In this document: positions 17,092 through 40,336 of the stretch, piece after piece | How the letters are laid out: every line of letters begins with the position of its first letter | Numbering within the stretch: the stretch's first letter is position 1 | Source of the DNA: an uncultured Planctomycetota bacterium | GTDB lineage: Bacteria > Planctomycetota > Planctomycetia > Pirellulales > Lacipirellulaceae | Direction of reading: 5' to 3' | NCBI GenBank assembly: GCA_963719315.1 | Contig: CAVRBU010000005.1 | Coordinates: forward strand, 128,001 to 192,000 | DNA length: 64,000 bases | Notes under the pieces: model-generated | Told to the model about the DNA's origin: nothing | Databases searched by the model: none | What the model saw: only the letters and a program-made list of their open reading frames with translations | Position numbers and translations under genes: made by a program

Positions 17092-17126
17092 CCCCAGCCC
17101 CCAGTCCCCAGCCTCCAGTCCCCCGA
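17092..17126. repeat. Heptamer array (CCAGTCC/CCAGCCC)n, single arm
   Basis: CCCCAGCCCCCAGTCCCCAGCCTCCAGTCCCC directly after the rpsG stop. Confidence 0.7.
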
Positions 17127-17597
17127 CTACCACGCAAAATGCGCGAACGCCTTGTTGGCATCCGCCATGCGATGCACGTTTTCGCGGCGGCTGACGGCCG
17201 CGCCTTCGCGATTGAACGCGGCCACGAACTCATCGGCCAGTTTCTGAGCCGTGGGCCGGCCTTTCTTTTCGCGGATCGCCAACAGCACCCAGCGGATCGC
17301 CAGCGACTGTTGCCGCGTGCGGTTCACCTGCATTGGGACCTGATAGGCGGCGCCACCGACACGCTTGCTGCGGACTTCGATCGAAGGCTTCACGTGCTCC
17401 AGGGCCTGCGTGAAAACCTCGATCGGCTCCTTATCCGGCACGCGCTTCTTCACGATTTCGAGCGCATCATAAAACACGTTCTGCGCAACGCTTTTCTTGC
17501 CGTCGTACATGAGCGTGTTGATGAACTTCGAAGCCAGGAGCGAGCCGTACAACGGATCGGGCTTGAGCTGTTTGCGGCTGGAGGTGATTCTTCCCAT
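17127..17597 (-). CDS. rpsG: 30S ribosomal protein S7
   Basis: [28 protein letters not shown]. Confidence 0.99.
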
Positions 17598-17631: not shown

Positions 17632-17712
17632 ATTTGTCATTGCAAATTTGTAATTTGTCATTGGCCATTTCCGAAATGACCAATTTCAAATGACAGCCGA
17701 CCAATGACCAAT
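17632..17712. repeat. Empty inverted heptamer element (AATGACA family)
   Basis: Two 40-bp arms separated by 1 nt; 37/40 and 31/40 identical to the arms at 30060-30099 and 30504-30543. Confidence 0.9.
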
Positions 17713-25630: not shown

Positions 25631-30010
<4,380 letters not shown>

Positions 30011-30059
30011 ATCTTTCGCTCCTAACGTGGTCGAAGCGGGGCGTGATCGGTTAAAACAA

Positions 30060-30542
30060 ATTTGTCATTGCAAATTTGTCATTTGTAATTGGTCATTTCG
30101 GGGGCGGAGTGATGGATTCCGGTCTTGCTGGTTCTTGACGAGAACTCTGCGCGCAGTCGATAATGATTGCCCCAGGATTCGGCATAGCTGATCTGATTCG
30201 TCAAGCACATCGGAAAGCATATTTTCTGAGATCGATCCTGAACGCGCGATCAAACGAAGCCAATATCTAGTTTCACGAAGCTCTTTAAGTGCGATGCTTA
30301 ACTTATGTACGAAATCCCTTCGACTCTCCGCGGCTCGTCCTTCTTCATAATTCGGCGCCGGCGAAGTTCCCGATCGTATTATTTGACTTGCGATATGCCG
30401 ACCGAGTCTTGAATCCGGCAATGAATCGGCAACTTTCCCAATCCGCGCCGCAAAATCCAACAATCGGTCCGCTAATTCATCAGGTGTCACTTAGGTTCCT
30501 TCTGAAATGACCAATGACAAATGACAAATTTGCAATGACAAA

Positions 30543-30543
<1 letters not shown>
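30060..30543. mobile_element. Four-helix-bundle cassette bounded by 40-bp heptamer-built inverted arms
   Basis: Arms 30060-30099 and 30504-30543 are 39/40 complementary; mobility is inferred, not shown. Confidence 0.6.
30065..30490 (-). CDS. Four helix bundle protein (23S rRNA IVP / bAvd-like)
   Basis: QIIRSGTSPAPNYEEGRAAESRRDFVHKLSIALKELRETRYWL signature. Confidence 0.93.
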   Translation of the reverse strand: MTPDELADRLLDFAARIGKVADSLPDSRLGRHIASQIIRSGTSPAPNYEEGRAAESRRDFVHKLSIALKELRETRYWLRLIARSGSISENMLSDVLDESDQLCRILGQSLSTARRVLVKNQQDRNPSLRPRNDQLQMTNLQ

Positions 30544-34253
<3,710 letters not shown>

Positions 34254-36412: not shown

Positions 36413-36838
36413 TTAACCTTTAACCTCTAATCCCATGCTGCGGGCTGTGCCGGCGACCATGTTCACTGCGTGATCGACGTCGCTCGCGTTGAGGTCGGCC
36501 ATTTTGATTTTGGCGATCTCCTCCATTTGGGCCCGCGTCACTGACCCGACTTTTTCCTTATTCGGAACCGGCGAGCCCTTGGCGATGTTGGCCGCCTTCT
36601 TGAGCAGCACGGCCGCCGGCGGGCTCTTGGTGATGAACTCGAACGAGCGATCGTTGTAAACCGTCACCACGACAGGAATCATCATCCCGCCCGCCTCGCG
36701 AGTCCGCTCGTTGAACTGCTGCACGAACTGACCCAGGTTGATGCCGTACTTGCCGAGCGAAGTACCAACCGGCGGCGCCGGCGTAGCCTGCCCGCCCGGA
36801 ATCTGAAACTTCGCCATGCCTGCAAATTGTTTTGCCAT
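36413..36838 (-). CDS. rplK: 50S ribosomal protein L11
   Basis: ATPAPPVG...GTARSMG. Confidence 0.99.
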
Positions 36839-36846
36839 TTTTTTGA

Positions 36847-36925
36847 AGCTGTTAGCTGTTAGCCATTAGCTATTAGCCAGAAGATTCGATTCTGGCTAAT
36901 AGCTAACAGCTAAGAGCTAATGGCT
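36847..36925. repeat. Inverted heptamer array, (TTAGCTG)n family
   Basis: AGCTGTTAGCTGTTAGCCATTAGCTATTAGCCAGAA-7 nt-TTCTGGCTAATAGCTAACAGCTAAGAGCTAATGGCT. Confidence 0.9.
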
Positions 36926-36929
36926 CTCC

Positions 36930-37793
36930 TCACACTGCTTCGATCTGCCAATATTCCAACTCAACCTGCGTGCTGCGGCCGAAGATATGAATCAGCACCG
37001 TTACGCGGCCGCTGGCTTCGTCGATCTTTGCCACTTCGCCTTCGAAGTTCTCGAAATTACCTTCCTTCACCTTGATCTTGTCGCCAGCCGAGAACTTGAT
37101 GTCGAGCTTGGGCGATTCGCTGGTTTCCTCTTCCTTGGTCTGCACAATCCGGGCGACTTCGCTGGCCAGCATCGGCGTCGGCTTGCCGCCGGCGCCCGTG
37201 AAATCCCCCACGCCCGCCGTCTCGCGCACCGCGAACCACGTGTCGTCGTTGATGTGCATGTGCACGACGATGTAACCCGGATACAACTTCCGCTCGACGA
37301 CTTTCTTCTTGCCCCCTTTGAATTCCGTCACTTTTTCGGTGGGCACGATCACCTGGTCGAAGAAGCGATCGTACCCCTCGATGCGCATCTTCCGCTCCAA
37401 GGCCTCGGCAATCGTGCGCTCGCGATTGCTTTGGACCTTGAGGATGTACCAATCCATGCTAGTGTCTTCGGGCTCCTCCGGCGTCAACTCGACCGGCTGT
37501 CGTCGGGCGATCGCCGCCGTGGAATTCTCCGCTTCAACGCTCGCGGGCTCTTCGATTTCCACCGACTCGTCTGGTGCCGACTCGTCGCTTTCGACATCGC
37601 TCTCGGCCGAATCGGCGTCGCCCGCTTGAGCTTCGTCCGCCGCTTCCGCCTCCGGGCCATTCGTTTCACCCGACGATTCGACAACGGACTGCTGACCGTT
37701 GGATTGCGCAACCTCGGACTCCTCGAGCGCGGTATCGTCGCTGCGATTACTCACCGCGTCGTCGGCCACGAATGCTGGATCGTCGTCGGTCAT
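36930..37793 (-). CDS. nusG: Transcription termination/antitermination factor NusG with acidic N-terminal extension
   Basis: WYILKV...KLYPGY, KOW, IFGRST. Confidence 0.96.
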   Translation of the reverse strand: MTDDDPAFVADDAVSNRSDDTALEESEVAQSNGQQSVVESSGETNGPEAEAADEAQAGDADSAESDVESDESAPDESVEIEEPASVEAENSTAAIARRQPVELTPEEPEDTSMDWYILKVQSNRERTIAEALERKMRIEGYDRFFDQVIVPTEKVTEFKGGKKKVVERKLYPGYIVVHMHINDDTWFAVRETAGVGDFTGAGGKPTPMLASEVARIVQTKEEETSESPKLDIKFSAGDKIKVKEGNFENFEGEVAKIDEASGRVTVLIHIFGRSTQVELEYWQIEAV

Positions 37794-39891: not shown

Positions 39892-39964
<73 letters not shown>

Positions 39965-39971
39965 AGGAATC

Positions 39972-40066
39972 AAGCTATTAGCTATTAGCCTTTAGCTGTT
40001 AGCTCAAACTTCTGTTTCTTGCTTCTTCTTTCTGGCTAAGAGCTAACAGCTAATAGCTAACAGCTT
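39972..40066. repeat. Inverted heptamer array, (TTAGCTG)n family
   Basis: AAGCTATTAGCTATTAGCCTTTAGCTGTTAGC...TTCTGGCTAAGAGCTAACAGCTAATAGCTAACAGCTT. Confidence 0.88.
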
Positions 40067-40072
40067 CCCCAA

Positions 40073-40143
40073 AGCGGGTGAAGGGAATCGAACCCTCGTC
40101 ATCAGCTTGGAAGGCTGTCGCTCTACCATTGAGCTACACCCGC
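40073..40143 (-). tRNA. tRNA-Gly(TCC)
   Basis: Cloverleaf, loop CTTCCAA. Confidence 0.96.
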
Positions 40144-40148
40144 ACAAT

Positions 40149-40241
40149 GGTCGAGGGCTGAGGGTCAAGAGTCGAGAGCCAACAAAACGCCCCGCAGCAG
40201 CGTGCGTTCTGGCTCTCGACTCTCGACTCTCGACTCTCGAC
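40149..40241. repeat. Inverted heptamer array, (GAGTCGA)n family
   Basis: GGTCGAGGGCTGAGGGTCAAGAGTCGAGAGCC...TTCTGG(CTCTCGA)4. Confidence 0.88.
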
Positions 40242-40253
40242 GTTCTTCTTCAT

Positions 40254-40336
40254 TGGGGAGTGCAGGATTCGAACCTGCGAAGGCATAAGCCATCAGATTT
40301 ACAGTCTGACCCGTTTGACCGCTTCGGTAACTCCCC
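40254..40336 (-). tRNA. tRNA-Tyr(GTA)
   Basis: Cloverleaf with long variable arm, loop CTGTAAA. Confidence 0.96.

Follow-up and report, generated by a model that had tools for sequence, protein, structure and literature searches.

We examined a 64,000-nt stretch of DNA from an uncultured planctomycete of the family Lacipirellulaceae (GCA_963719315.1, contig CAVRBU010000005.1, positions 128,001 to 192,000; henceforth the window), in which a small gene stands between two inverted arms in the spacer between rpoB and rpoC. Positions are those of the window unless a contig is named. The assembly, labelled G000, has 20 contigs with 5.93 Mb in total and 58.7% G+C, and the arms with the gene that they enclose, hereafter the cassette, correspond to C5:158060-158543. 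As far as we could find, the cassette is a member of a widespread, apparently undescribed class in which the gene for a four-helix-bundle (4HB) protein sits at the tip of a heptamer-armed hairpin.

Layout of the cassette

The genes rpoB, cargo and rpoC all lie on the minus strand. The features are given below in the order of transcription.

34253..30543, minus strand: rpoB, upstream host gene, Pfam-confirmed
30504..30543, minus strand: 5' arm, 40 nt, units of about 7 nt (ATTTGTC/ATTGCAA/ATTGGTC), its first transcribed base being the A of the rpoB TGA
30491..30503, minus strand: spacer AGAAGGAACCTAA, 13 nt from the 5' arm to the GTG start, purine-rich, Shine-Dalgarno-like by eye
30065..30490, minus strand: cargo gene with a GTG start, encoding a 141-aa TIGR02436/PF05635 4HB protein (profile matches)
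30060..30099, minus strand: 3' arm, pairing 39/40 with the 5' arm
30011..30059, minus strand: leader, 49 nt from the 3' arm to the rpoC ATG, poorly conserved between G000 and its relative G004 (31/51)
25631..30010, minus strand: rpoC, downstream host gene, Pfam-confirmed

The arms had been described in an initial annotation made from the letters alone, and a repeat finder returned them at the same positions, 30060-30099 and 30504-30543, with 39 of 40 positions complementary (98%) and a gap of 404 nt. The overlaps with stop codons were recovered as well. The rpoB TGA occupies 30545-30543, so that base 30543 is common to the stop codon and the 5' arm, and the 3' arm holds the last 11 codons of the cargo together with its stop (30067-30065). 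The cargo protein scored 92.7 bits against TIGR02436 (cut-off 24) and 67.7 bits against PF05635 (cut-off 33.8), which bears out its earlier family assignment. The family match covers residues 8-112, and the sole relative in the Protein Data Bank was 2rld_A (E 5.4e-17). The 4HB gene is the only open frame that fits between the arms, which leaves no space for a transposase gene; the initial annotation was correct that the cassette has no transposase and, as judged by eye, no clear target site duplication. Rfam covariance models gave 0 matches at E values up to 1 in 29950-30650. No rRNA was matched within the window, and the cassette is not inside a 23S rRNA helix.

Both arms are periodic. At a shift of seven nucleotides (lag 7) the self-match was 20/33 for the left arm and 22/33 for the right arm, compared with at most 12/34 at the other lags from 3 to 12. 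These lag-7 values were reached by 5 and 0 of 10,000 shuffles, respectively. The units are imperfect, one of them being ATTGCAA-like, and the earlier description of about five units per arm is a fair one. The inverted-repeat score from flank to flank was 37 for the cassette, while 400 random loci of the same genome had a mean of 8.6 and a maximum of 15. When 521 nt were folded as RNA, the minimum free energy was −166.6 kcal/mol (z −3.52, with 0 of 100 shuffles as stable), and the arms formed the basal stem.

Paralogues in the same genome

The genome contains 11 TIGR02436 genes. The flanks of ten of them have inverted-repeat scores of 13-37, above the 99th percentile of the null, which is 12; the remaining gene, with a score of 9, is at the null level. 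The repeat unit differs at each paralogue (GGTTGAG, AGCTGTT, CGAGGAG, GAGGGTT, GGTGTCG, GGGTTCA and AGCAGGG, among others, with one 8-mer). The nine intact paralogues share just 22-58% identity with the first sequence of their alignment and are therefore old. Two paralogues, at C3:281164-281484 and C2:171710-172051, carry one in-frame stop each (TGA and TAG) with their arms intact.

The layout is shared. In the orientation of the gene, the stop of a co-directional upstream gene often overlaps or abuts the first unit and is followed by the arm, a short purine-rich spacer, the open reading frame (ORF) and the complementary arm. A co-directional downstream gene often starts within about 0-50 nt of the cassette. 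By ORF heuristics, the upstream neighbor is co-directional with the TIGR02436 gene in 11 of 11 cases and the downstream neighbor in about 9 of 11.

Heptamer arrays are abundant in this genome. A strict scan found 215 arrays of period 7, compared with 18, 41, 11, 4, 3 and 2 arrays for periods 5, 6, 8, 9, 10 and 11, respectively. A relaxed scan found 336 period-7 arrays, with 49 inverted pairs among them at distances of up to 3 kb. Most of the pairs (37) are tight hairpins with loops of at most 60 nt and four have loops of 61-300 nt; six pairs are separated by over 650 nt, with long open frames inside. Only two pairs are spaced 301-650 nt, and each encloses a 4HB gene. No other class of cargo was found among the array pairs detected by the relaxed scan. 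The units of 180 of the 327 free arrays are within one mismatch of the unit of some cassette, a descriptive count made without a null.

The same design in other phyla

We searched for related loci using one genome per species and the three closest paralogues as seeds. There were 584 confirmed relatives in 600 stretches, of which the best 80 were kept; this sample is biased to the clade of the seeds, with 43-75% identity to the query. By record title, the kept loci are from Planctomycetota, Verrucomicrobiota, Bacteroidota, several Gammaproteobacteria, Acidobacteriota, Gemmatimonadota, Nitrospiraceae, Chloroflexota and Patescibacteria. The mean best lag-7 self-match per 20-nt window, taken within 170 nt of the gene, was 15.0 upstream and 15.1 downstream, and it was 9.1-10.5 at other lags. 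Of 78 flanks on each side, 41 upstream and 37 downstream had a match of at least 16/20 at lag 7, with 0-3 at other lags. Far flanks attained this level in 3 of 77 and 7 of 76 cases, and the genes themselves in none of 80. Among the 76 loci with both flanks usable, 23 passed this threshold on both sides, 51 on at least one and 25 on neither.

The arms pair in many of these loci. With gapped alignment, the arm score was at least 30 in 62 of 90 cassettes (the 80 relatives and 10 from the genome under study), and 35 of 79 loci were above the 99th percentile of a mismatched-pair null that is inflated because loci share units. The initial annotation had called for the flanks of TIGR02436/PF05635 genes to be inspected for inverted arms and a 7-nt period, and both were found, the former at 10 of the 11 genes of this genome and the latter in their relatives. 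Its suggestion of five units for five subunits found no support, as the arms vary in length from 12 to 48 nt. In the 5' arm the sense strand is purine-rich in 55 of the 62 cassettes with an arm score of at least 30. Two candidate features of the arms were discarded. All three reading frames are closed by 5' arms in only 19 of 62 cassettes, which does not fit arrays of stop codons, and GCCAGA/TCTGGC is no common inner-arm motif but a subfamily marker present in only 11-12 of 62.

These results bear on whether the association is a coincidence, in which slippage-prone heptamer arrays are common and happen to flank a small gene. The excess of 215 strict period-7 arrays over the 2-41 found at periods 5, 6 and 8-11 is what such an explanation would start from. 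However, none of the 400 random loci reached the inverted-repeat score of the cassette, 10 of the 11 paralogues were above the null, and both detected array pairs at 301-650 nt enclose a 4HB gene. The lag-7 signal is moreover limited to the immediate flanks of relatives in many phyla. We consider coincidence extremely improbable.

Free arrays are a different matter. In a phylum sample, 82 of 151 genomes carry the 4HB family, and all 11 genomes with (RRGTYGA)x3 arrays were 4HB-positive while none of the 69 4HB-negative genomes had them, although this is a single unit family and the relatives are not independent. In a unit-agnostic search, 100-kb samples of four 4HB-rich genomes (11-16 genes) contained 1, 1, 0 and 0 period-7 arrays. 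Four 4HB-free genomes (100, 100, 51 and 100 kb) had 0, 0, 1 and 0, and the genome under study has 5.66 per 100 kb. The four 4HB-rich genomes therefore do not support the idea that 4HB genes are generally accompanied by dispersed arrays. Since these other 4HB-rich genomes are nearly free of arrays, the large population of free arrays is a trait of this lineage rather than of 4HB genes at large.

Gain and loss at the rpoB-rpoC junction

We compared 20 rpoB-rpoC junctions from 19 genomes of the same genus. Three were empty, with 54-61 nt between the genes (G014, G008 and G021). Eight had an orthologous 4HB cassette (G004, G020, G016, G012, G007, G018, G017b and, with a frameshift, G019), and the remaining nine had other contents. 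The initial annotation had proposed a search for empty sites; they do exist within the genus, and the gene is thus not carried here by all relatives.

The other contents are varied. The junctions of G006 and G003 (L007, L015) have a GC-rich hairpin of 166-171 nt, those of G017a, G011 and G023 (L005, L008, L013) a nested palindrome of 200-217 nt, and those of G009 and G002 (L014, L011) small unrelated ORFs. The G015 junction has a 5' TTGCAAA array without a gene, and that of G022 is unclassified with poorly placed boundaries. The rpoB-rpoC junction looks like a hotspot for structured inserts. Because none of the 20 junctions has a plain arm-to-arm hairpin without a gene, the arms and the gene are gained and lost together. 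An additional, incomplete heptamer array precedes the functional 5' arm of the G007 junction (L018) by about 130 nt, which suggests a local duplication.

A tree was built on 1271 nt of the flanking rpoB and rpoC sequence. It joined the occupied G018 as sister to the empty G008 with a bootstrap of 100, and the empty G021 and G014 followed with 100 and 85. By an informal count, one gain in this local clade requires fewer events than three losses. Junctions with cassettes were also paired with junctions that hold other palindromes, G020 with G017a (100) and G016 with G006 (86). Of 17 genomes that belong to other families of the order, one gave no match; the junction gaps were about 75-230 nt as estimated from the coordinates of high-scoring segment pairs, with the exceptions of G026 (about 850) and G035 (about 340).

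Selection on the cargo and concerted change of the arms

Strong purifying selection acts on the cargo protein. G000 and G004 share an amino-acid identity of 0.89, with dN of 0.059, dS of 1.80 and a dN/dS ratio of 0.03. The ratio is 0.06 between G018 and G017b, and the remaining pairs are saturated in dS. The orthologue in G019 (junction L017) has a frameshift in the second half of the cargo, and its arms still pair 41/42.

The cargo tree has two deep clades, one with G000 and G004 and one with the other seven, separated with a bootstrap of 100. Between these clades the nucleotide identity of the cargo is 54-63%, where that of the flanks is 83-88%. The clades correspond to arm composition, TTTGTCA-type on the one hand and ATTGCAA-/AATGCAA-type on the other. 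All nine rpoB-rpoC cassettes have stems that pair from 33/35 to 45/45 with three arm compositions. Since all nine stems stay paired despite differing composition, the unit must have been replaced in concert on both arms.

Cargo-less hairpins that share the arm

The 40-nt composite arm of the cassette has 18 further matches in the genome, with 88-100% identity, and it is also present in the genomes of relatives. Ten of the 18 are two-armed hairpins of about 81 nt with loops of 1-3 nt, or 24 nt in one case; for the other eight, a single arm was detected. One of the hairpins is in the window.

17632..17712, no strand assigned: cargo-less hairpin in the rpsL-rpsG spacer, left arm 37/40 identical to 30060-30099 (counted by eye), arms 1 nt apart

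In comparison with these hairpins, the rpoB-rpoC cargo occupies the exact apex of the palindrome (CATTTC|GAAATG). The stem of the cassette (39/40) is closer to perfect than those of the cargo-less copies (about 34/40 by count). We considered the 24-nt loop of the hairpin at C3:290321 as a possible remnant of cargo and rejected it, as 326 of 2000 shuffles aligned as well to the interior of the cassette.

The rpsL-rpsG spacer holds a two-armed heptamer hairpin in 12 of 15 genomes of the genus and in G031, which is from another family of the same order. Its unit is GCTGTCA in G004, GCTGTCA-like in G007, GCTATTA in G012, G001, G003 and G015, AATGACG in G008, and GGCTGTC in G014, G002, G013, G005 and G010. 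The copy in the genome under study mixes the GGCTGTC unit with ATTGGTC units. The exceptions in the genus are G009 and G011 with one-sided arrays and G006 with two non-matching arrays, and no heptamer hairpin was found in the rpsL-rpsG spacer of G025 or G026, which are from other families. The hairpins at this site are long-lived, and their units have been replaced in place with the arms kept complementary.

Such persistence raises the possibility that the hairpins serve the host as conserved intercistronic structures for processing, stability or attenuation, with the 4HB protein as a regulator that tunes the ratio of rpoB to rpoC. The rpsL-rpsG hairpin, with units that differ and arms that remain complementary across 12 of 15 junctions and in one other family, would fit this explanation, as would the hairpins or arrays at nusG|rplK, after rpsG and between tRNA genes, and the purifying selection on the cargo. 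Yet the cassette is dispensable at rpoB-rpoC, where three junctions are empty and nine have unrelated palindromes or ORFs, the G019 orthologue is frameshifted, and two paralogues have in-frame stops. We view a host-serving role as rather unlikely.

A wider reading is that 4HB proteins are sequence-reading partners of heptamer hairpins, each paralogue matched to its own unit and acting in trans on cargo-less hairpins at operon junctions such as rpsL|rpsG and nusG|rplK. That the protein might read the arms is kept alive by an arm identity of 79/80 between G000 and G004 at saturated dS together with the dN/dS of 0.03 for the cargo. It also draws on the 180 of 327 free arrays close to cassette units and on the 11 of 11 genomes with (RRGTYGA)x3 arrays that are 4HB-positive. 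It is weakened by 4HB-rich genomes that can be without free arrays, and we hold it as a speculative extension that is probably incorrect. If true, sequence-reading 4HB proteins would constitute a hidden post-transcriptional regulon or a symbiosis of gene and repeat. The latter would also explain the heptamer repeats of Xanthomonas, cyanobacteria and Beggiatoaceae.

A proposed stem-loop cassette in the spacer of an mRNA

We propose, as an explanation somewhat better than even, that the cassette is a stem-loop element of the type of the 23S rRNA intervening sequences (IVSs) that lives in an mRNA spacer, is gained and lost as a unit and is probably cut by RNase III. The proposal builds on the layout, its recurrence in paralogues and in many phyla, the joint presence and absence of arms and gene, the selection on the protein and the concerted change of the arms. 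The cassette would have no promoter of its own and would be transcribed along with the operon. In the RNA, the arms would form a duplex of about 40 bp, with the rpoB stop drawn close to the rpoC leader and the 404-nt insert insulated. This duplex could be an RNase III substrate, as it is in 23S IVSs. A cut there would split the rpoB message from that of rpoC, and the 4HB message would be either freed or destroyed. Co-transcription, the RNA stem and RNase III cleavage are suggested by the orientation of the genes, the lack of room for a promoter, the predicted fold, the presence of the enzyme and the precedent in Coxiella. The assembly has an RNase III gene with a score of 223.6 bits (cut-off 166). 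We guess that new copies arise when arms recombine or undergo gene conversion, or through some trans-acting activity.

Several observations weigh against this proposal. The arms of G000 and G004 are 79/80 identical (39/40 and 40/40), where only 52 of 105 third codon positions of the cargo match and dS is 1.8. The arm sequence itself is thus held beyond what pairing requires, and a bare stem is insufficient as the cause; either selection or conversion against the dispersed copies present in both genomes may have held it. The mismatches in 62 stems show no RNA-type bias, with 53 of the G:U type and 63 of the A:C type on the sense strand, and a G:U bias was accordingly rejected as a sign of an RNA stem. 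Since the wobble counts are unbiased, pairing could be maintained equally well at the DNA level, and an RNA stem is not separable from a DNA stem. No transposase was seen, nor, by eye, a target duplication at the cassette or at the dispersed hairpins. Gain is distinguished from loss only locally because the flank tree is weak at depth (supports of 34-78). Cutting the mRNA of an essential operon might be costly, which could argue for a protected stem. Lastly, metatranscriptome contigs from four runs cover only the conserved parts of rpoB and rpoC with almost no depth at 30110-30478; even the best of 21 RNA runs contained no more than 0.13 of the sampled words. In one of the runs (X4), a contig joining 30096 to 30500, from one arm to the other, was considered as an excision product and rejected, as it is most likely the cargo-less hairpin of a relative.

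Some of these points would be accommodated by a DNA-level element, in which the arms are DNA hairpins, cruciforms or recombination handles and the RNA stem is incidental. The element would copy through gene conversion or recombination between arms, or by means of a hairpin-recognizing enzyme in trans, comparable to REP/REPIN sequences with their RAYT proteins. The wobble test (53 vs 63) is neutral toward it, and the composite arm is found at 18 other places, 10 of them two-armed, as well as in the genomes of relatives. Conversion among such copies would also account for the arm identity of 79/80 between species despite saturated neutral sites. However, the cassettes have no candidate enzyme linked to them, and the 4HB fold is not known to be catalytic. 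The orientation is tied to transcription, with 11 of 11 upstream genes co-directional and purines prevailing on the sense strand of the 5' arm in 55 of 62 cassettes, and four 4HB-rich genomes have only 0-1 period-7 arrays per 100 kb. We regard a DNA-level element as unlikely.

Relation to known systems

The IVS in helix 45 of Coxiella burnetii 23S rRNA encloses an S23p ORF in a terminal stem of 28 bp, and its 5' arm contains heptamers in tandem (PMC4990558). The heptamers are GACAGAT in three copies, with a copy number that varies among strains, and RNase III cleaves at the first repeat (PMC4990558). ORF-bearing 23S rRNA IVSs also occur in Leptospira, as cited in the same source. Among described elements these IVSs come closest to the rpoB-rpoC cassette, which resembles them in its S23p/PF05635 protein, in the terminal inverted repeats that would form a basal stem around the ORF and in the heptamers of its arms, and it is of similar size to the Coxiella IVS at about 0.43-0.48 kb (PMC4990558). 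The IVS-like cassette of the initial annotation is supported to this extent, namely in its arm-gene-arm layout. It differs in that its host RNA is an mRNA spacer between protein genes, so that the defining 23S location is lacking. The cassette protein is under strong purifying selection, whereas the Coxiella ORF has been argued in that source to be decaying and untranslated. RNase III excision was demonstrated for the Coxiella IVS (PMC4990558) and would be expected by analogy for the cassette. Apart from the Coxiella IVS, we found nothing that links the 4HB family to heptamer arms and no use of the term TIGR02436 in the literature within our scope, which excluded subscription journals and supplements.

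Intergenic heptamer repeats have been described in other bacteria. In Xanthomonas, the unit GGGAATC forms 70-75 convergent pairs, and intergenic heptamers are also known from Nostoc, Calothrix, Beggiatoaceae, Microcystis and Bacteroidetes (TAACTGA), according to two reports (PMC4692102, PMC4679880). The arrays described here are like them in having 7-nt tandem units, in being intergenic, in often occurring as inverted pairs and in varying between close relatives. The terms 'four helix', 'S23' and 'intervening sequence' appear nowhere in the text of either report (PMC4692102, PMC4679880), in which the repeats are unconnected to the 4HB family.

Other mobile or repeated elements share some of the traits of the cassette without matching it. 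The REP/REPIN elements go together with RAYT transposases, and the Correia elements are co-transcribed miniature inverted-repeat transposable elements that are cut by RNase III. As in both, the palindromic element is also dispersed without cargo and its hairpins would be transcribed within operons. As in REPIN-RAYT systems, a gene is located between inverted copies of a repeat whose further copies are scattered over the genome (18 other places). Unlike them, the cargo is a 4HB protein rather than a Y1 (RAYT) transposase, the heptamer arms differ between paralogues, and four 4HB-rich genomes are without a dispersed array population (0-1 per 100 kb). The accessory proteins bAvd and Avd of diversity-generating retroelements (DGRs) belong to a related 4HB fold family. 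A role of the cassette as a DGR accessory gene was rejected because there is no adjacent reverse transcriptase. The assembly has only two reverse-transcriptase genes, at C5:217803-218465, about 59 kb from the cassette, and at C18:10790-11452. Contig C18 has no TIGR02436 gene and both reverse-transcriptase genes are far from every 4HB gene. Their profile scores are identical, and they may be copies of a single element.

For more than 30 years no function has been assigned to the IVS protein family, and heptamer repeats in several phyla have lacked an explanation; the present locus unites the two. New features are the site inside the RNA polymerase operon, the series of empty, occupied, decayed and otherwise occupied junctions across a genus, and the two cargo clades with different arms at a single site. 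To these are added arms conserved past synonymous saturation, a dispersed cargo-less family with the composite arm and the finding that free arrays are scarce in samples of other 4HB-rich genomes. The setting is favorable, as the operon is essential and highly expressed, the protein is selected, and empty, occupied and decayed versions of the site are found in one genus. For annotation, the locus is a warning that the rpoB-rpoC spacer and other spacers in core operons can hold such inserts.

Other heptamer arrays in the window and the genome

The spacer between nusG (36933-37793) and rplK (36416-36838) is filled by a 74-nt AGCTGTT/AGCTAAC hairpin at 36847-36920, and a second hairpin of the same family is at 1564-1659. 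A CCCCAGT/CCCCAGC-like heptamer run at 17092-17124, G-rich on the transcript strand, directly follows the rpsG stop (17127-17129). Upstream of tuf, tRNA spacers have arrays at 40035-40065 (AGCTAAC type) and 40209-40246 (CTCGACT type), flanked by tRNA genes at 39892-39964, 40073-40143 and 40254-40336. Elsewhere in the genome, mixed heptamer arrays form dense clusters at C2:2043669-2049169 (at least 10 in 5.5 kb) and at C5:200854-202173. The longest array of the assembly extends over 304 nt at C19:13711-14014, where the unit CCCTTAA grades to CCCTCAA.

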